From Gammaproteobacteria bacterium GWE2_42_36 (GTDB lineage: Bacteria; Pseudomonadota; Gammaproteobacteria; UBA12402): DNA of 64,000 nt. The notes below the pieces were generated by a model. The model was not told the origin of the DNA, did not search any database, and worked only from the letters and a program-made list of their open reading frames with translations. Positions 8,697 to 18,669 of the stretch are shown here, in pieces. Numbering within the stretch: the first letter of the stretch is position 1; every line of letters begins with the position of its first letter. The stretch spans positions 4,371 through 68,370 of the forward strand of contig MGXH01000061.1 of the NCBI GenBank assembly GCA_001801305.1, in the 5' to 3' direction. The position numbers and the translations under genes are program-made.

Positions 8697-11397
8697 TTAA
8701 TCTTCCTCTCGGCAATTTACATAGCTCCAACACAATGAGCGGAATCATCCCAATACCTATCCATGTCAGGCATTGCGTTAACGATACAACCCCTACCCCA
8801 AAAATTTCTTGCAAGAGGGGAACATGATGAATGAGTAATTGAAGGGAAAAGCTAATACTGACAATAAAAAATAAACGGATATTTGAGAAAACCCCTATCT
8901 GCCAAATGGGTTTTGTATTACTGCGCGCACCAAACGATCGTAATAATTCCGCTGTTACCAATACTGAAAAAGCCGCATCTTGTGCTTGCATCAAATTCCC
9001 TTTTCCCAAATACTCATAGGCAAATACCGCGAGCGTTATCAAAGACGTCAAAGATCCAATAAAGATAATTCGCCGAAAAAAATGCGCATCCATGAATGGT
9101 TTTCGAGGATCTCTAGGCGGGCGATTGAGAATATCCGGTTCGGGCACATCGGTTGCTAGTCCGATTGCGGGTAACCCGTCCGTGATTAAATTAATCCATA
9201 ATAATTGAATCGGTAAAAGTGGTAATGGCCATCCTATTAAAAGCGCCACAAAAACCACCGTCAATTCACCGATATTTCCAGCTAACAAATAAGATAACGC
9301 TTTTGCAATATTATTATAAATCGTACGTCCTTCTTCGATCCCGGCGATAATAGAAGCGAAATTATTATCCATGACGATCATATCTGATGCTTCTTTGGTA
9401 ACATCCGTCCCTGTTTTACCCATCGCGATTCCTACAGAAGCTTCTTTTAACGCCGGCGCGTCATTCACACCATCCCCAGTCATCGCAACCACAACTTGAT
9501 GTTCTTTCCATGCCCGAACAATTTTTAATTTATGCTCCGCTGTCACACGAGCATAGACGGTAATTTGCTTTACCGCTTTTATGAATTCTGCTTGGGTCAT
9601 CTTGTCCAAATCACTACCCGTCACCAATCGATCACCTGGGTTAAAAATACCCAGCGCGCGAGCAATCGCGCTCGCCGTCTCAGGATGATCTCCGGTAATC
9701 ATGATCGGTTTAATACCGGCCATTTTGCATCGACGAACCGATGCTTCTGCTTCTGCATGAGGGGGATCTTGCAATCCAATCAATCCTAAAAAAACCAGAT
9801 CATTTTCGATCTTTTCATCGATTGTTTCTGTTGAAGCAACGGTTAACGTGCGTTCTGCTAATGCTAATATCCGTAGCCCTTCGCTCGCCATTAATTGGCA
9901 AGATTGCTGCATGCGCACGAGATCATTCGGCATCATTGCTTTAACTCCTTCTTGCGTCAGAATGTGAGAGCAGCGATCTAAAATAGATTCGGGCGCACCT
10001 TTTACAAAAGCGAGCAATTGATTGTCTTTCTGACATACGACCGTCATCCTCTTTCGCTCAGAATTAAAAGGTAATTCTTTGACGCGAGGATAAGAAGATT
10101 CAAGAGTACTGCTTTCAATATTCCCTTTAGTTGCAGCTATCAATAAAGCGATTTCTGTGGGATCTCCCATCGTAGATAATTGATCGTTTTGCGAAGCGAT
10201 CTTTGCATTGTTACAAAGGACTGCTGCGCGTAATAAGGTTGATAACAAAAGATCTTTAGAAACCGTGACATCATGTTCTCGAGGAGAAAAAGCACCCGTT
10301 AAATTATACCCTTCCCCTTGAATGGTATAAATAGATTCGATTGTCATCAGTTTACGTGCGGTCATTTCCCCGACTGTTAATGTCCCCGTTTTATCCGTAC
10401 AAATAACCTGTAAACATCCTAATGTTTCCACCGCAGATAAACGCCTGACTAGCACGGCGCGCCGCACCATGCGTTGCACGCCTAAAGCTAATGCAATGGT
10501 AACAACCGCTGGCAATCCTTCAGGAATGGCTGCAACCGCTAAGCTAACTGAACTCATGAATAATTTAAACGGTTCAATATGACGAAACAACCCCACGATA
10601 AAAGTAAGCACAACAATTGCAAAACAAATCCATAATATACGTGCGCCAACTTGATTTAACTTTTTTTGTAGTGGCGTTTCAGTTCGAGTGACATTTTCCA
10701 GCATCTCAGCGATATGTCCCATTTCGGTTTTCATACCCGTCGCTGTCACAATGGCTTTGCCAGTTCCATTAACGATAGTAGTACCCATAAAAATCATATT
10801 TTTTCGATCGGCTAAAGGCGTCTCCGCAGGATAGGATTGAATGTTTTTATCAACAGATAATGATTCTCCAGTCAATGGAGCTTCGTTAACTTTAAGAGAA
10901 GCTATCTCAAAAACACGTGCATCAGCGGCAATTAAATCGCCGCTTTTTAATAATAAGATATCACCCGGGATAAGAGAGGATGCTTCAATCACTACAGCCT
11001 GCCCATCGCGTAATACGGTTGCTTTTGGTGCTGCTAACTGCTGCAATGCCAACATCGCGCGATCAGCGCGGTATTCTAAAAAAAATCCAATAACGGCATT
11101 CAAGACCACGATAGCAAAAATCACTATCGCATCCACTTTCTCATTGAATAAAAATGAAACGACGATGGCGCCTAGTAATACCCAAATCATTAAGCTGTTT
11201 AGCTGTAGAAGAAAAATTTTTAAAAGAGAGGTTGCTTTCTTTTTGGTTAAGACATTGAGACCGTATTCTTTTAATCGATCTTGAGCGGCGATTGCGGTTA
11301 ATCCGTAAGATAAATCAACTTGAAGATGGAGCGCGAGGCTTTCTGGTGTTTCTCTATACCCAAGGTATGTCATATGATAAAGATTCCCTTTCAACAT
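8683..11397 (-). CDS. Cation-transporting P-type ATPase, type II (Ca2+-ATPase-like); no CPx heavy-metal motif
   Basis: 904 aa; motifs DKTGTLT, TGDGVNDAPAL, and TM4 IPEGLPAVVT typical of P2A pumps; cation-ATPase N-terminal domain. Confidence 0.8.
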   Translation of the reverse strand: MLKGNLYHMTYLGYRETPESLALHLQVDLSYGLTAIAAQDRLKEYGLNVLTKKKATSLLKIFLLQLNSLMIWVLLGAIVVSFLFNEKVDAIVIFAIVVLNAVIGFFLEYRADRAMLALQQLAAPKATVLRDGQAVVIEASSLIPGDILLLKSGDLIAADARVFEIASLKVNEAPLTGESLSVDKNIQSYPAETPLADRKNMIFMGTTIVNGTGKAIVTATGMKTEMGHIAEMLENVTRTETPLQKKLNQVGARILWICFAIVVLTFIVGLFRHIEPFKLFMSSVSLAVAAIPEGLPAVVTIALALGVQRMVRRAVLVRRLSAVETLGCLQVICTDKTGTLTVGEMTARKLMTIESIYTIQGEGYNLTGAFSPREHDVTVSKDLLLSTLLRAAVLCNNAKIASQNDQLSTMGDPTEIALLIAATKGNIESSTLESSYPRVKELPFNSERKRMTVVCQKDNQLLAFVKGAPESILDRCSHILTQEGVKAMMPNDLVRMQQSCQLMASEGLRILALAERTLTVASTETIDEKIENDLVFLGLIGLQDPPHAEAEASVRRCKMAGIKPIMITGDHPETASAIARALGIFNPGDRLVTGSDLDKMTQAEFIKAVKQITVYARVTAEHKLKIVRAWKEHQVVVAMTGDGVNDAPALKEASVGIAMGKTGTDVTKEASDMIVMDNNFASIIAGIEEGRTIYNNIAKALSYLLAGNIGELTVVFVALLIGWPLPLLPIQLLWINLITDGLPAIGLATDVPEPDILNRPPRDPRKPFMDAHFFRRIIFIGSLTSLITLAVFAYEYLGKGNLMQAQDAAFSVLVTAELLRSFGARSNTKPIWQIGVFSNIRLFFIVSISFSLQLLIHHVPLLQEIFGVGVVSLTQCLTWIGIGMIPLIVLELCKLPRGRLNAIC

Positions 11398-11460: not shown

Positions 11461-11712
11461 CTAATGTTTATCATGATCTCTATGTTTATGTCCATGATGC
11501 ATAAACAGATGCATCAATGGACATAACAATATCAAACCAACGAATAAAATATCAAAAAAACGGCTCATGATGTGTGCTTTATGTTCAAAGAGCAGATACA
11601 CAGCAAACAAAATAATAAGTGTGATCATCACCCACTTCCAACACGATCGTGGCTTTCGCATTTTTTGGGCCTGTTGGATGGGTATTGTTTTTAGATTTTT
11701 ATCCATTAGCAT
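11461..11712 (-). CDS. Small membrane protein with His-rich C-terminal tail (…LMHLFMHHGHKHRDHDKH); putative metal-binding accessory protein
   Basis: 83 aa; one or two TM helices followed by His cluster; position between ATPase and RND2. Confidence 0.4.
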   Translation of the reverse strand: MLMDKNLKTIPIQQAQKMRKPRSCWKWVMITLIILFAVYLLFEHKAHIMSRFFDILFVGLILLCPLMHLFMHHGHKHRDHDKH

Positions 11713-11718
11713 TTACCC

Positions 11719-12099
11719 TTAGGTTTTTTGCTTATTCGGCATCTCCTTTTGCTCCATCATCGGTTTCATTGACGACATGCTTCCACTACCATCTTGCATT
11801 TTTATCATGGGCCTATTTTTCATATCCATATTCGTGTTATCCATCATGCATTTTCCCATCATGCAGCATTTTTTCGTTTGTGGACTAAAATAACCTACCG
11901 ACCCAGATCGCATCGTATAATAACTTGTGCACGCTAATCCTAAAACCGCCAATATCACAGCAAGGTATCCAATAAATTTTGGAAACCCAGTCCCCACATT
12001 AGCATGCGCCTTAGCCCAAACAATTAATGCCGCGGCGAGCACCAAAACAATTAATTCTAATGAAAAAACCACATGAGCATAAAACATAGTAATCATCAC
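11719..12099 (-). CDS. Small membrane protein with Cys/Met-rich tail (CCMMGKCMM…MDMKNRPMIKMQ…SMSSMKPMM); putative Cu/Ag-binding accessory protein
   Basis: 126 aa; two predicted TM helices then Met-rich low-complexity region; immediately downstream of the CusA-like gene. Confidence 0.45.
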   Translation of the reverse strand: MMITMFYAHVVFSLELIVLVLAAALIVWAKAHANVGTGFPKFIGYLAVILAVLGLACTSYYTMRSGSVGYFSPQTKKCCMMGKCMMDNTNMDMKNRPMIKMQDGSGSMSSMKPMMEQKEMPNKQKT

Positions 12100-12158
12100 T
12101 TTCTCCTTTTGTAAAAATCAAAAACCAACATAATATTGCACGATAACGCTATCCTTTT

Positions 12159-15100
12159 TCAACCAACCTGTCTACTTTTTGCGCTTATTTTTAATGCTTT
12201 TTTCTGCAACATCAAATAAATAATAGGCACAATGAATAAAGATAACAAGGGCGCTGTAATCATGCCTCCGATCATCGGGGCCGCAATACGCCGCATAATC
12301 TCAGATCCCGTTCCATGCCCCAGCATGACCGGCAATAACCCCGCAATGATGATTGCAACTGTCATCGTTTTCGGACGTAATCGCTGGACAGCGCCTCGAA
12401 TAATGGCTTGTTGCAAATCTGAATACGTCATTAGCTGTCCTGATTTTTGGGAATCATTGACAGCTTGATCTAAATAAACAAGCATCACCACACCAAATTC
12501 AGTGGCTACACCGGCTAAGGCAATAAACCCAATCGCTACAGCTACAGAAAGATTAAATCCTAATAAATACGTTAACCAAAACCCGCCGATTAAAGAAAAA
12601 GGCAAAGTCACCATAATCAGCAAGGCTTCATTAAAATTACGAAATACTGTAAAAAGAAGCCATAAAATGATGACTAAAGTCAGCGGCACAATAAATTCCA
12701 TTCGCTTAACGGCGCGCTCTAAATATTCATATTGCCCAGACCATTCAATCGAATAACCCGGCGGTAATTGTATTTTCTCAGCGACCAGGCGTTTTGCTTC
12801 TTTGACATAAGTCCCTAAATCTTTTCCACTCATATCGACATAAACCCAATTAGTCAAACGAGCATTTTCACTTTTCAACATAGCAGGACCATCAACAATT
12901 TTTATTTCAGCAACACTGGATAAAGGAATCACAGCACCAGTAGGTGATAAAATGGGAATGTCATTTAATTTTTGCAGTGAATCTCGCCAATCACGATCAA
13001 ATCGCAAATTGATCGGATAGCGTTCTAAGCCTTCAACCGTTTCACTGATATTATCTCCGCCAATCGCCATACGAACCATATCTTGCACATCACTGATATT
13101 TAAAGCATATCGGGCTGCTTGCTCTCGATTGATATGAATATTCATATAACGTCCAGCTAAAGGCCGTTCTGCATAAGCGGAAACCGTCCCAGGAATCGTC
13201 TTAACCAATGTTTCAATTTGTTCACCAATATCTTCTAATACCTCTAAATGAGGCCCACTCACTTTGATACCGACTGGGCTTTTAATACCTGTCGCTAACA
13301 TATCGATACGGTTACGAATCGGTTGCACCCAAACATTCACCAAACCCGGGATGTTGACTGTTTGATTCAACACACGGATCAGTTGATTGATCGTCATCCC
13401 TTTACGCCACGCGGATTGAGGTTTCAATTGAATCGTCGTCTCAAACATTTCTAAAGGGGCTGGATCGGTTGCTGTATCGGCATGACCGGCTTTCCCAAAA
13501 ACACTTTTCACTTCAGGCACTGACGCAATGAGTTTGTCGGTTTGTTGTAAAATTTGTGCGGCTTTACCAATAGCAATGCCCGGAAAAGCCGTTGGCATAT
13601 AAAGCAAATCACCTTCATTGAGCGGCGGCATAAATTCAGAACCTAATTTCATAAAGGGGATGAACGTAAGCGCCAGAAATACTAAGGCTATACTCAGAAT
13701 CAATTTGGGATGATCTAAGGCATACTTTAATGCCGGCTTGTAGCCTTTCATCAAATAATGATTGATCGGATTTTTATTTTCAGCACGAATAGTCCCTCGC
13801 ATTAAATACAACATTAAAACGGGAACCAGCGTGATCGATAATCCTGCAGCAGCGGCCATCGCATAAGTTTTAGTAAAAGCCAATGGGGCAAACAATCGAC
13901 CTTCTTGTGATTGAAGCGTAAAAATCGGCGTGAAACTTAACGTAATAATCAATAAACTAAAAAATAACGCCGGCCCTACTTCGACAGCTGATTGCGTGAT
14001 TAATTCCAACCGTTTCGCAAAAGTTAATGGTTGATTAGGGGAATTTTGTTGATGCCTTTCAAAATGTTTATGGGCATTTTCTATCATCACAATGGCTGCA
14101 TCGACCATCGCGCCAATTGCAATAGCAATACCGCCCAAAGACATAATATTGGCATTGATCCCTTGTTGTTGCATGAGCATTAACGCGACTAAAATACCAA
14201 TGGGCAGTACGATGACTGCTACAAAAGCTGAACGAATATGAAATAAAAAAATCATACACACTAATGCGACAATAATACTTTCTTCAAGCAATTTATCTTT
14301 TAGGGTGGATACCGCCCGCTCTATGACGCCTGACCGATCATACGTGGGAACAATTTCTACCCCTTTTGGCAAACTTCCTTTTAGACTTTGTAATTTTGCC
14401 TTGATTAATTGAATGGTCGTTTCAGCATTTTTTCCATATCGCATTATCAGAACACCACCAACTACTTCTCCTTCTCCATTCAACTCTGCTATGCCGCGCC
14501 GAATTTCTGGACCTAACTGAACATGCGCAACATCTTTCAATAAAATAGGAACGCCATTACTGCCAAGCCCTATGGGAATTGATTCGATATCTTGAATCGA
14601 TTTTAAATAACCATCCGCACGAACCATATATTCCGACTCACCCAACTCAATCACTGATCCGCCTGATTCTTGATTGGCATTTTTAACTGCCTCGACAATT
14701 TTATTAAGTGGAATCCGTAATGCTCTGAGCTGATTTGGGTCTATTACAATTTGATACTGTTTGGTCATCCCTCCAATCGTGGCAACTTCTGCAATACCCG
14801 GAACCGTACGTAATTCATATTTTAAAAACCAATCCTGCAAGCTACGCAATTGCGAAATATCATAGCGCCCTGTTTTATCAATCAATGCATATTCATAAAT
14901 CCAACCTACCCCCGTTGCATCAGGTCCCAATTCAAGCTTAACGTCGCTCGGTAATTTAGCGGCCGCTTGATTGAGATATTCTAATACACGACTGCGCGCC
15001 CAATATAAATCCGTCCCATCTTCAAATAACACATAGACATAAGAATCACCGAAAAAAGAATAGCCCCGCACTGTTTTTGCGCCAGGCACAGACATCATCG

Positions 15101-15314
15101 TAGTAGTTAAAGGGTAAGTGACTTGATCTTCCATAATTTGTGGCGCGCGACCAGGATAACTCGCTTTAATAATCACTTGGACATCTGAAAGATCTGGAAT
15201 GGCATCGATAGGTAATTGTCTTGCTAAATAAATTCCACCAAAAACCAAGATCATCGTTGCGAATAAAATTAAAATGCGATTTCTAAGCGACCATTTAATA
15301 ATAGCGGCAATCAT
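12159..15314 (-). CDS. cusA: Heavy-metal efflux RND transporter, CusA/CzcA family (system 2)
   Basis: 1051 aa; paralog of 3097-6219 with the same conserved blocks; operon with CusB-like MFP. Confidence 0.85.
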
Positions 15315-15318
15315 GTTC

Positions 15319-16779
15319 TTATACCTTCATCACGATGATATGCGTAATCACAAATTCATCGCCCTTAGGGTTTAAATCAAACTGTATTTTATCACCCGGT
15401 TTTAATTGAGAGAGATCAACATCGTTTGTCACAAAAAATGACATTGTCATCGCCGGCCAATTTAACGCGCTGATCGGTTGATGACTCACCGTCAATTGAT
15501 GTTCGGCTAATTGAATCGTTTTAATAATACCTATAGCGGTAGGATCAGATTGATCAGCCGATTTGCTTGTTGCTGTTGAAGCGGACAGGTCCGGTGCTGA
15601 CAAACGATCCAAAGCGCCTTTCAGGTTTGCTTCAGAATCAATTAAAAATTGCGCGGAAGTCACCACACTTTCTCCTGGTTTTAATCCGGAAATAATTTCA
15701 ATACGATCTCCCGATTCCATTCCTGCAACAACAGTACGCGGTTCAAATTGACCCTGCCCCAATGCCATGATGACTCGATCCCCATGTCCTGTTCGAATAA
15801 GCGCTTCTTGCGGAATACTTATCACTTGTTTTCTAGGGGCTGCCAATAGGCTGATATTCGCATACATACCGGGTTTTAATACGTTGTTGGGATTATCAAA
15901 ACACAACCTGACTTTTAACGTTCTGGTAGTGGGATCAACTTGAGGATAGATATAATCGATTTGGCCAACTAAAACTTTCCCGGGCATGGATGATAATTTA
16001 GCTTCTACTTTTTCACCCACAGAAACGCGTTGTGCTTGTGATTCGTAAACTTCCACCATCATCCAAACTTTTTTCAAATCTGCCAAACTCATGATGGTTA
16101 ATTCGGGGGTCACTTGCATGCCTTCACGCACATTCAACTCGGTTATAAATCCATCTTGCGGCGCATTAATATCAATGAGTGGTTCTGATTTTTTGGCAGC
16201 TTTTACCCGTTCTATTTGTTGTGGGGAAACACCTAGGGCAAGAAGCTTTTTATAGGATGCCGCAACCAACTCTTTTTGCGGCATTGTTAATGCAATCAAA
16301 TATTCCTCTTGTGCATTCACTAAATCTGGCGAATAAAGCTGAAATAACAATTGATCTTTCATGACCGGATCACCAACCGCTTTTACGAATAGCTTTTTGA
16401 TCCATCCTGTCGCATAAGTATGAATATGGCTCATCGCATTTTCATCGATATTCACGTAACCAACCGTTTCAATCTGCTGCGACAAATCACCTTGTAACAC
16501 CGGCGCTGTTCGAACGCCTAAATTATCAACAACGGCGGGCGACAGCGTAATGATGGAAGCATTAGCTTGGGTCGTTGTATCATCAGCATAAATCGGAACA
16601 ACATCCATCCCCATTCGAGATTTTCCGGGTTTATCATAATGAACAGTTGGTTCCATCGGATCTATCCAATACAATGGTTTTTTTGCTAAAGCCACATTTC
16701 CATTCGCTATACAAACCGACAATACTCCGCTGATCACGATCAGGCATAACGTCATTAACAGCGTTTTAATCTTCGTCAT
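15319..16779 (-). CDS. cusB: Membrane-fusion protein, CusB-like, with N-terminal Met motif (RMGMD) and fused C-terminal CusF-like periplasmic metal-binding domain
   Basis: 486 aa, ~90 aa longer than MFP1; C-terminal ~90 aa (…[30 protein letters not shown]…) resembles a CusF-like OB fold. Confidence 0.7.
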
Positions 16780-18050
16780 ATCAACACTCCTCTTAGATAA
16801 TTAAGATTTATTTGTGCTTTTCGACAGTCCACTTGAATACGGAGCTGTGCCAATCGTAAATCTAAAATAAGGCGGTTCGCTTGAATCACATTGATAAAAT
16901 CACCCGCTGCGCTTTGATAGGCGAGTAAAGCCGCTTTTGCATTTTGCGCCGCTTTAGGGATGATGCTTTTCTTGTATAACAAAGCACGTTGATTTAATTT
17001 TTGCCACAACGCATATTGCTCAGATAATTGTGCAGATAAATCTCGATAATGAATTTGACGATTCAATTCTGCAGCCACTAATTTATCTTCACTGGCCTTC
17101 AAACGTTTATCCTGGCGGTTCCTTGTGAAAACCGGGAGATCCATCGTTACTTCAGCACTGACAAAATCTGATCGCCGCATACCATGCGATGGGCTTCCTT
17201 GCCGCGCACCATATCCAACACCCACATCAAAACCAGGTTTATACTGTTCCTTATTCCATGCCATCTCTTGTCGCGCCGCTTCAATACGATCGTTATCTCC
17301 CGTCAACAATGGATGTGTAAGCAACCCTTTTTTTAATTCTATTAAAGACGGCGTTGAAAATTCGGGTATCTCCGTGCCCAATGGACGCATGGCCTCATCG
17401 CCGATCCATCGACTTAAAATCGCACGCAACGATTCAATTTGTTGCTGTAATTGAAATTGTTTATCTTCCAGTTCAGATGATTCCAATTGTGTTTGCAAGA
17501 CAATCTGTTGGCTGGTTTTTTCTGTGGCATATTGCGCTTCTGTTGCATGCACAATACTCTTTAATAGCTGCTGCTGTTTTTGAATACTGTCTTTTGCTTG
17601 AACCGCATAATAGAGCTCTAACCAAGTATTACTGACCTGTTGAATCAACGTCAAAGTCATTTCACGTTGACGTTGTTCTGCAGCGAAAGATAATGCCTGC
17701 GTCTGTTTGGATTTATCGCTTAATGCATGTCCTGCTGGAAAATACTGAGAAACACCTATTTCAGTCATCGTCATATCATCATGCGTCAACGTAAAATCAT
17801 CCGTAGGCACATTCGCCACGCCCAAGGTCAATTTCGGATCTGGTAATTGCCCATTCGCAACCGCTTCTTGTGTTAAAGCATCTGCAGATGCCTGTGCTTG
17901 CTGCAACGTAGGTTCGCGCGATATAGCTTCATGAATAGCGGTCGTCAACGTCAGAATAGATGGCTTGGCTTCAGCAAAACTTGCCGAACTCCACAGCGTG
18001 ATGATTAAACATATAATCATCCCTCTTGAAAAGTTAACTATCGCATTCAT
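16776..18050 (-). CDS. cusC: Outer-membrane efflux factor (CusC/TolC family), system 2
   Basis: 424 aa; signal peptide (…SSASFA); ATGA overlap with the MFP gene. Confidence 0.7.
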   Translation of the reverse strand: MNAIVNFSRGMIICLIITLWSSASFAEAKPSILTLTTAIHEAISREPTLQQAQASADALTQEAVANGQLPDPKLTLGVANVPTDDFTLTHDDMTMTEIGVSQYFPAGHALSDKSKQTQALSFAAEQRQREMTLTLIQQVSNTWLELYYAVQAKDSIQKQQQLLKSIVHATEAQYATEKTSQQIVLQTQLESSELEDKQFQLQQQIESLRAILSRWIGDEAMRPLGTEIPEFSTPSLIELKKGLLTHPLLTGDNDRIEAARQEMAWNKEQYKPGFDVGVGYGARQGSPSHGMRRSDFVSAEVTMDLPVFTRNRQDKRLKASEDKLVAAELNRQIHYRDLSAQLSEQYALWQKLNQRALLYKKSIIPKAAQNAKAALLAYQSAAGDFINVIQANRLILDLRLAQLRIQVDCRKAQINLNYLRGVLI

Positions 18051-18117
18051 TCAAAAATTTCATCTTAATTATACTTTTTAGAAATCATTTAAAAGTTTAT
18101 TATCAACTTTCACCTAT

Positions 18118-18170
18118 AGATCAAGGTCAACATAAATTTAATCTTATTAAAAAAGGTTGACCTTGATCTT
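18118..18170. promoter_or_regulatory. Perfect 14-bp inverted repeat agatcaaggtcaac/gttgaccttgatct with 25-bp AT-rich spacer, in the divergent merR-like/cusC-like intergenic region; candidate operator
   Basis: Read directly: 18118-18131 is the exact reverse complement of 18157-18170. Confidence 0.5.
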
Positions 18171-18234
18171 AGGTTTAAGGTTTATCATGCGCCAACAAGA
18201 AGAACAGTTTGTTTTTTAATACGAGGTAGCATCT

Positions 18235-18669
18235 ATGAATCAACTCACCATTGGCAAGCTAAGCACGCTAACGGATGCTAGCACCGTCACTATTCGTTTC
18301 TATGAAAAACGAGGATTGATTAAACCTTCAGGACGCAGCCCGGCAAAATATCGCCTTTATTCACCCGCTATTGTGGATCAAATTGTCTTTATTAAAAACG
18401 CTCAAGACGTTGGATTCACCTTAAGAGAAATAAAATCCCTCATTGATCTACTCAACAGCAAAAAAGCAACTAGCAGAGATATTAGAGAAAATACTTTGAG
18501 CAAAGTCAAAGAAATCCAAGAAAAAATCGTGACTCTAAAAAATATGCAAAAGATTCTCGAACGTTGGGCATCAGCCTGCGATGGGAAAATGCCGATAGAA
18601 GATTGCCCCATATTGAAAAAGCTGTTTCAGCCGACCAAAAGAATCATGAACTCGAAAAAAGAAAAGTAG
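18235..18669 (+). CDS. MerR-family transcriptional regulator (CueR/ZntR-like metal sensor)
   Basis: 144 aa; N-terminal HTH (IGKLSTLTDASTVTIRFYEKRGLI); C-terminal Cys pair C-x8-C (CDGKMPIEDC); divergent from the efflux operon. Confidence 0.75.
   Translation: MNQLTIGKLSTLTDASTVTIRFYEKRGLIKPSGRSPAKYRLYSPAIVDQIVFIKNAQDVGFTLREIKSLIDLLNSKKATSRDIRENTLSKVKEIQEKIVTLKNMQKILERWASACDGKMPIEDCPILKKLFQPTKRIMNSKKEK

Follow-up and report, generated by a model that had tools for sequence, protein, structure and literature searches.

Results

Two small genes between cusA and a P-type ATPase gene

We analysed a 64,000-nt stretch of contig MGXH01000061.1 (hereafter the window) from the groundwater metagenome-assembled genome (MAG) Gammaproteobacteria bacterium GWE2_42_36. 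Its minus strand carries a gene string in the order cusC, cusB-cusF, cusA, ORF1, ORF2, a P2-type ATPase gene and a second cusCBA set (OEP-MFP-RND, for outer-membrane factor, adaptor and pump). The two short open reading frames (ORFs) in the middle of this string, ORF1 and ORF2, are the subject of this study. An original prediction, made by a model from the sequence, had read them as membrane proteins with metal-binding tails, located on the minus strand after a CusA-like gene and before an ATPase gene, and the coordinates agree with this placing.

ORF1 (11719..12099, minus strand) starts 60 nt after cusA and encodes 126 aa from a GTG at 12099 or, likelier, 125 aa from an ATG at 12096. The shorter form is favoured because an AGGAG Shine-Dalgarno box, read from the sequence (12103..12107, minus strand), lies 6 nt ahead of that ATG; it is also the form called by NCBI, and the box (AAAGGAGAAAGT) is shared by L001, the corresponding locus of a close relative whose CusA is 83% identical to that of the window. 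ORF2 (11461..11712, minus strand) encodes 83 aa from an ATG at 11712. Its other possible starts are the ATGs at 11706 (81 aa, the version called by NCBI) and at 11661 (66 aa). Both ORFs share one reading frame and meet at the junction TAA GGG TAA (11713..11721, minus strand), whose two in-frame stops are CAA (Gln) codons in L001.

According to AlphaFold2, both proteins are low-confidence hairpins, with a predicted local distance difference test score (pLDDT) of 59-65. In ORF1, helices at residues 3-30 and 37-67 are followed by a disordered tail (pLDDT < 50). The two-helix membrane hairpin corresponds to residues 1-72 (11881..12096, minus strand) and the tail to residues 73-125 (11722..11880, minus strand). 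The tail holds a C-x-M-M-x-K-C-M-M motif, which is conserved in the closest homologues and is part of CCMMGKCMM in ORF1. Of 63 tail residues 13 are Met, which makes up 2.9% in the window at large (binomial p = 2e-8); the Met share of the tail is 23.6% versus a family mean of 18.4%. The predicted combination of two transmembrane helices, CCMMGKCMM and a Met-rich tail is therefore borne out for the 126-aa ORF. For the 83-aa ORF a single transmembrane segment had been proposed; here AlphaFold2 instead gives two helices, at residues 22-46 and 52-73, with a mean pLDDT of 65.

ORF2 is a member of the DUF2933 family

Judged by its profile match, ORF2 is a clear member of DUF2933 (PF11666), an already catalogued family of unknown function: it scores 46.4 bits against a cut-off of 21 (E = 4.4e-12) and covers model positions 2-51 of 52. 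The expectation that the two ORFs lie outside the canonical cus and czc sets thus holds, whereas ORF2 is not a new kind of protein. Its DUF2933 core comprises residues 31-83 (11464..11622, minus strand). An alignment of 19 DUF2933 sequences shows no variation at L40, E43, H44 and H47 (helix 1), at L62, or along C64-P-L-M-H-L-F-M-H-H-G-H75 (helix 2). ORF2 retains all 17 of these invariant columns, among them the E, H and H of E43-H44-x-x-H47 at the outer end of helix 1 and then CPLMHLFMHHGH, which spans helix 2 to the predicted cytoplasmic face.

The C-terminus of ORF2, HHGHKHRDHDKH, is indeed His-rich (seven of the last 17 residues; binomial p = 2e-8), as had been noticed. However, what was taken for the start of a His tail, MHHGH included, belongs to the invariant motif CPLMHLFMHHGH. 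The tail thus opens with residues fixed throughout the family, and variation is confined to the last few; in the family this variable end is rich in His, Asp and Lys. The tail had also been regarded as possibly periplasmic. The mean number of lysines plus arginines (K+R) in DUF2933 proteins is 2.47 ahead of helix 1 and 0.95 in the loop, and from this distribution and the positive-inside rule we infer that both ends of ORF2, the His-rich one included, would face the cytoplasm.

We found no solved structure related to DUF2933 in the PDB. A tblastn search of plasmids with ORF2 gave no match, probably owing to the short query and the low-complexity filter. Gene context forms no part of the Pfam definition of DUF2933. 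Nonetheless, it is worth pointing out that the family recurs in a genomic-island cluster of the type merR-copA-cupredoxin-DUF2933-ICMT in Alteromonas, Vibrio, Pseudoalteromonas and others (PMC8478169). Compared with other DUF2933 proteins, ORF2 of the window is alone in having a 20-residue N-terminal extension taken from the upstream gene, and it lacks the customary ICMT and P1B-ATPase neighbours.

ORF1 belongs to a family of Met-tailed hairpins

ORF1 matches no model in Pfam or NCBIfam, and only P0002 (66% identity) and P0003 (38%) came up as relatives in a word-seeded search. The possibility that it is an orphan gene is nevertheless ruled out by an exhaustive profile search and by a search seeded with the hairpin module. 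A weak tblastn match (E = 0.01) led to a hypothetical protein of the Legionella pneumophila plasmid pH3-D-14. It consists of a tandem-duplicated ORF1 hairpin module, and its gene directly follows a DUF2933 gene and an ICMT gene; in a profile comparison by hhalign the two proteins are related with a probability of 98.3% (E = 1.3e-14). The exhaustive search with an ORF1 profile retrieved 326 representatives of 50%-identity clusters at E <= 1e-3, of which 84 were at E <= 1e-10. Among the matches listed, proteins are 73-180 aa long and nearly all align from the first few residues. By these comparisons, ORF1 is a member of a family unnamed in Pfam and NCBIfam that combines an N-terminal two-helix anchor with a predicted disordered tail rich in Met, Lys, Gln and Gly.

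The family consensus reads MMFxxxxAFALxLIALxxGxxLLxW...AKxxGY...LCTSYYxxxYWxxGYFxxP and is followed by the tail. Cys56, at the end of helix 2 and ahead of an aromatic stretch, is near-invariant (98% of members), and G68 is found in 93%. Window ORF1 has C56, G68 and F70, the hairpin thus keeping Cys56 and G68-Y-F, whereas at Y64 and W65, conserved in 85% and 73% of the family, it has S64-G65. Richness in Met characterises the tail throughout the family. In 156 tails the residue shares are M 18.4%, K 9.8%, G 9.3%, Q 8.7%, P 7.4%, H 5.0% and C 1.9%, and 42 of these tails contain a C-x-M-M motif. An HxxHH C-terminus occurs in 31 of 161 members, both closest homologues among them, and is absent from window ORF1; about three quarters of the family have neither an HxxHH nor an HH end. 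Mean K+R counts rise from 0.05 at the N-end to 2.71 in the loop, and the segment immediately following helix 2 has 1.84. Because of these counts we favour a topology in which the N-end is out, the loop in and the Met-rich tail probably periplasmic.

None of 83 family members reaches the cut-off of any Pfam or NCBIfam model, and the PDB holds no relative of ORF1. With the CusF model (PF11604) neither ORF gives a match at E <= 0.01, and ORF1 gives none even at E <= 5. No Pfam match ties ORF1 to cupredoxins, and homology to the MerT/MerF mercury transporters was considered and dropped, there being no match to Pfam mercury-transporter models for either ORF. Marinimicrobia and FCB-group members (L083, L087, L048, L118 and L050) match the central part of the DUF4199 model (PF13858) at 22-29 bits, below the cut-off of 32.3. 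The hairpin module and DUF4199 may therefore be distantly related; window ORF1 itself does not match DUF4199, the function of which is likewise unknown. The hairpin module is tandem-duplicated in several Legionella species (L003, L022, L043, L071, L075, L106 and L111); the pH3-D-14 protein (L003, 7929-8429, plus strand) has four helices in 166 aa and a short tail of the MHMTMPH type.

Gene neighbourhoods tie both families to copper export

Pattern scans of reference-genome and metagenome collections with the alignment of the ORF1 clade gave no match. A hand-made degenerate DNA pattern, C..YY...YW..GY, which is blind to gene context, yielded 36 true loci among 109 matches in reference genomes. 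Together with metagenomic loci they make up the set of 45 loci considered here. The pattern-derived loci come from 14 Legionella species, MAGs of Coxiellaceae and other Legionellales, Anoxychlamydiales, Marinimicrobia, Lentisphaeria, Myxococcota and one FCB-group MAG; L. pneumophila was added through the plasmid.

In 23 of the 45 loci the family member stands in a triad with DUF2933 and an ICMT gene, usually in the order DUF2933-ICMT-family member and often with overlapping stop and start codons. Another 12 loci have a P1B ATPase gene in the same fetched stretch and no DUF2933. The remaining 10 have neither, several of them being cut by locus edges. In other words, the ORF1 family adjoins DUF2933/ICMT and/or a Cu-type P1B ATPase (CPC or CPH) in 35 of 45 loci, and one or both contexts are found in 27 of 36 when only pattern-derived loci are counted. 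The neighbouring ATPases have copper signatures: at 11 loci CPC occurs together with M[AS]xSS, at four CPH together with MSLST. A ZntA-like CPCALV ATPase is found at one locus only, 4.5 kb from the family member. Multicopper oxidase genes are present in the same fetched stretch at ~10 loci. The order seen in the window, with the family member followed by DUF2933, recurs in L001, L008 and L090; in most other loci the ORF1-family gene comes after ICMT.

The ORF1 family and DUF2933, usually with an ICMT-like methyltransferase, are thus a conserved accessory module beside Cu-type P1B ATPases, and we consider a link of both families to copper probable. Conservation and synteny had been named as a check on the original prediction, and both ORFs prove to be conserved, with synteny across at least 15 Legionella species and several phyla. 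The proposal that they are accessory metal proteins fares well insofar as the neighbourhoods connect both families to copper export, but their usual partners are P1B Cu-ATPases and the ICMT-like enzyme rather than the Cus system.

Several other genes were noticed near the module. Next to the DUF2933 gene of L003, a 102-aa ORF (6462-6770, minus strand) has a signal-peptide-like N-end and dense His/Trp repeats (HWxxH-like) and matches nothing in Pfam. Genes for metallo-beta-lactamase (MBL)-fold/beta-CASP and thymidine-phosphorylase-like proteins recur beside the triad in L004, L006 and L008, as do those for universal stress proteins.

Remodelling of the ORF1/ORF2 boundary

In L001 the genes are ordered merR-copB-ORF1-DUF2933-ICMT, divergent from cusCBA; the CopB there is of the CPH type with a His-rich N-end. 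The ORF1 homologue fills the slot that belongs to a cupredoxin in the published merR-copA-cupredoxin-DUF2933-ICMT clusters. The location of the ORF1-DUF2933 pair behind cusA is a rearrangement peculiar to the window lineage.

DNA alignment with L001 reveals how the boundary between the two genes was moved. Two CAA->TAA changes form the TAA GGG TAA junction and shorten ORF1. In addition, an in-frame deletion of 84 nt (site at 11656..11658, minus strand), for which the deleted L001 stretch begins and ends in A runs, removed everything from the last 16 codons of ORF1, which include the HxxHH end, through its stop and the spacer to the start that ORF2 originally had. Because of the two new stops and the deletion, 20 codons of the ORF1 tail now form the N-terminus of ORF2. 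These are residues 1-20 (MLMDKNLKTIPIQQAQKMRK; 11653..11712, minus strand), which are homologous to a stretch inside the relatives' ORF1 tail (MPMDKNSKTMPMQQPQKMQK) and were captured from the upstream gene. By the same alignment ORF1 is a truncated copy that has lost about 40 C-terminal residues. If the predicted topologies are right, the transferred segment would have switched from a periplasmic to a cytoplasmic setting.

An identical 691-nt stretch, with zero mismatches, is present in three other assemblies, the protein occurs on 12 contigs, and the TAA GGG TAA junction is unchanged in L119-L121. Given this recurrence, the stop codons are not a one-off assembly error. Recoding or read-through of the TAA codons was set aside, as there are two stops one codon apart and a well-placed start after them; nor does anything else in the window suggest that TAA is read as sense. 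Pairwise dN/dS (nonsynonymous to synonymous rate ratio) against L001 is 0.23 for ORF1, 0.24 for the ORF2 core and 0.14 for the transferred segment, the last figure being based on 20 codons only. The low dN/dS together with the exact recurrence indicates that both ORFs are real genes, and we are highly confident that they encode genuine small inner-membrane proteins of the families assigned above.

L001 has a further small ORF of 126 aa between cusC and merR (5364-5744, minus strand), which carries the Met-rich patch EDEMMMGMGH and has neither a Pfam match nor a counterpart in the window.

Pumps, ATPase and regulator around the pair

Upstream of the pair on the minus strand lie the genes for the cusC-like OEP (16776-18050), for CusB (15319-16779), which has an N-terminal HMBD and a C-terminal CusF domain, and for CusA (12159-15314). 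Because CusB carries the CusF domain, the periplasmic chaperone is fused to the adaptor and not separately encoded. Both RND pumps are CusA-like, scoring 1377 and 1125 bits against Escherichia coli CusA versus 545 and 530 bits against ZneA. The gene following ORF2 after 63 nt encodes a P-type ATPase of 904 aa (8683-11397, minus strand). An ATPase is thus present where one was expected, but it is of the P2 type (SERCA/PMR1-like) and not a heavy-metal P1B enzyme: it has the domains Cation_ATPase_N and Cation_ATPase_C, and among NCBIfam models those of the PMR1 and SERCA types score best, both below their cut-offs. A Ca/Mn-type pump therefore sits within a copper operon, between two CusCBA-like operons; the 3' end of its gene and the start of the outer-membrane factor gene that follows share positions 8683-8696.

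A CueR-like merR gene (18235-18669) is divergent from cusC. The spacer between the two holds a divergent pair of MerR-type promoters (18099..18188), in each of which, as far as reading against the consensus goes, TTGACC and a (T/G)AT.AT box are separated by 19-20 nt. ACCTT..A(A/G)GT dyads lie in the promoter spacers, and the two mirror-image promoters arise from an imperfect inverted repeat of 33 nt. With these promoters, the CueR-like regulator, the CusA-like pumps and the HMBD and CusF domains of CusB, the setting of the pair in the window is of a copper type. Between cusA and the ATPase gene, a promoter and terminator scan found sites no more frequently than expected by chance, and the same-strand gene string shows no convincing promoter or terminator between its members. 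Rfam and tRNA scans of the region were empty.

Elsewhere in the window, a 43-aa ORF just downstream of the second RND gene (2899-3030, minus strand) resembles the C-terminal end of a transposase (ISL3-like by eye), which hints at past mobile-element activity there. At 23-26 kb, epimerase/dehydratase and DegT-type aminotransferase genes match sugar-modification families and are followed by a long run of genes on the same strand. The G+C content drops to 33-35% at ~36-54 kb compared with ~41% in the metal region. The gene run at ~23000-56000 may be a surface-polysaccharide cluster.

Discussion

A probable role in copper and silver handling

Based on these observations, we infer that the pair most likely handles Cu(I)/Ag(I) at the inner membrane, and on balance we regard this as the best explanation of the data overall. 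It is tempting to speculate how the two hairpins might act. With both of its ends outside the inner membrane, ORF1 would use its Met/Cys tail in the periplasm to bind Cu(I)/Ag(I) leaving an inner-membrane exporter. In the window the tail might then hand the metal to the CusF domain of CusB and further to CusA. ORF1 would in this way do the work of a tethered CusF or SilE, or of the Ctr1 Met motifs. ORF2, with both ends cytoplasmic, would offer a ladder of His, Cys and Met ligands that starts where helix 1 ends on the outer side and leads down to the cytoplasmic face. Along it the Glu and His residues would be at the outer end of helix 1, Cys-Pro in mid-helix, and Met and His toward the cytoplasm, and ORF2 could thereby bind or relay metal at or within the membrane. 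These specific hand-off roles of ORF1 and DUF2933 are a tentative proposal that we hold with some doubt.

By analogy, ORF1 may be likened to several known copper proteins, but it is a member of none of their families. CusF and PcoE/SilE are Met- or His/Met-rich, partly disordered periplasmic binders of Cu and Ag encoded in pump operons. They are soluble, have signal peptides and possess folds or motifs of their own, whereas ORF1 is tethered to the membrane by its conserved hairpin and matches neither family; CusF, moreover, is already present here as the domain of CusB (PF11604 matches the CusB C-terminus). Ctr1, the eukaryotic Cu(I) importer, carries flexible Met motifs (MxM, MM, MxxM) on its membrane domain, which are thought to capture Cu(I). 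However, Ctr1 is an unrelated trimeric three-helix importer, we saw no homology between it and ORF1, and the direction of transport differs. CopI is described as a cupredoxin-like periplasmic protein, implicated in copper tolerance, with multiple His- and Met-rich regions (PMC13308877). It has a cupredoxin fold and is soluble, and ORF1 shows neither feature. In its proposed action ORF1 would be closest to tethered versions of CusF, of SilE/PcoE, of the CopI His/Met regions or of the Ctr1 Met motifs. Met-rich accessories for copper handling are known as a kind of protein, whereas the ORF1 architecture and family are undescribed.

At the level of gene order the closest parallel is provided by the merR-copA-cupredoxin-DUF2933-ICMT clusters (PMC8478169). 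L001 has the same order of merR, P1B ATPase, a gene X, DUF2933 and ICMT. The difference is that X is a cupredoxin in the published clusters and a Met-tailed hairpin, the ORF1 homologue, in L001 and in the window. The window retains X-DUF2933 and a CueR-like merR, without copA or copB and without ICMT.

A number of points weigh against copper handling by this pair. The usual partners are missing, since neither ICMT nor copB nor any P1B ATPase is detectable in the 64-kb window. In a relative-rate test with P0003 as outgroup, ORF1 shows 14 window-specific versus 4 P0002-specific substitutions (p = 0.018), and the changes on the window branch hit the conserved positions Y64S, W65G and C102D. Either the constraint on ORF1 has been relaxed or the protein is adapting to the place where it now stands; given this rate excess and the loss of Y64, W65 and HxxHH, it may work differently here, or poorly. 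The topology of both proteins is derived from charge counts alone. Tails of the ORF1 family are Lys-rich overall (~6.5 K+R per tail), so that a cytoplasmic tail is possible, and Cys residues in the periplasm might be oxidised. In the literature we examined, DUF2933 is mentioned only as a landmark on maps or in tables of genes. Finally, the stretch fetched for each of five Anoxychlamydiales loci (L054, L063, L064, L069 and L101) holds no gene for DUF2933, ICMT, a P1B ATPase or a multicopper oxidase, and the tail of the copy inspected (L063) is Lys/His-rich, not Met-rich. The absence of copper partners and the make-up of this tail suggest that the family has a different role in Anoxychlamydiales. 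The L063 copy is set among housekeeping genes, beside a superoxide-dismutase-like gene.

Alternative explanations

The missing partners and the accelerated change could also mean that the pair, and ORF1 above all, is a decaying leftover of a copB-ORF1-DUF2933-ICMT operon with little or no function in this genome. The comparison with L001, which retains merR-copB-ORF1-DUF2933-ICMT while the window is without copB and ICMT, is in line with decay, as are the shortening of ORF1 by two stops, the 84-nt deletion of its conserved HxxHH end, the excess of window-branch substitutions with Y64S, W65G and C102D among them, and the nearby transposase fragment, which indicates rearrangement. Yet both frames are intact and have ribosome-binding sites, and pairwise dN/dS remains at ~0.23-0.24. 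ORF1 retains Cys56, G68-Y-F and CxMMxKCMM, and a short tail is normal in a family about three quarters of which lack an HxxHH or HH end. ORF2 keeps all invariant family residues without any rate asymmetry (5 v 3, 4 v 5 and 6 v 5 substitutions) and for these reasons looks fully maintained. We therefore consider decay unlikely. The still more sweeping idea that annotation artefacts, or frames open by chance in an AT-rich spacer, have been mistaken for genes could draw, in the case of these ORFs, on their shortness, on the absence of ORF1 from any database family and on the fruitless pattern scans with the ORF1 clade. It is refuted by the match of ORF2 above the Pfam cut-off, the hundreds of homologues retrieved with the ORF1 profile, the purifying selection on both genes and the synteny kept across at least 15 Legionella species and several phyla.

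Another possibility is that at least one of the hairpins serves as a small subunit that regulates or stabilises a P-type ATPase or CusA and carries no metal itself. Small membrane proteins are known to regulate pumps, as exemplified by KdpF, MgtS/MgtR, AcrZ and phospholamban/sarcolipin. Tiny hairpins encoded beside pumps would fit such a role: family members adjoin P1B ATPases, and in the window ORF1 begins and ORF2 ends some 60 nt (60 and 63 nt, respectively) from cusA and the SERCA-like ATPase gene. On the other hand, the conserved residues are of metal-ligand types (His, Cys, Met and Glu) and do not form a plain packing surface, and the Met-rich tail is long and disordered. The pair was also kept though the neighbouring pump switched from P1B to RND and P2, and outlasting such a change argues against a strict partnership with one pump. 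A purely regulatory function is rather improbable in our view, although regulation and metal binding are not mutually exclusive.

Implications

A much bolder extension would be that DUF2933, the ICMT-like methyltransferase and the Met-tailed hairpin family are the parts of one undescribed copper machine of the membrane. In one version the methyltransferase would modify one of the small proteins, for example by carboxyl methylation, and so tune its metal binding. In another the two hairpins would assemble to relay or conduct Cu(I) through the inner membrane, working alongside the P1B ATPase. We regard such a three-part machine as a long shot; if it were true, the window would represent a stripped-down two-part version re-wired to CusCBA.

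Taken alone, the window offers a modest result: two accessory genes of a copper operon, one of an already catalogued family and the other, ORF1, a reduced copy. The remodelled ORF1/ORF2 boundary is nonetheless a clean natural case of a coding segment passing to a neighbouring gene. Beyond the window, DUF2933 gains a defined genetic partner, an ORF1 family found in Legionella, Coxiellaceae, Marinimicrobia and other groups. The passage of Cu(I) from an inner-membrane exporter to its periplasmic partners has been worked out in a few model systems only, and the ORF1 family, DUF2933 and the ICMT-like enzyme are three small candidates for the missing hand-off steps.

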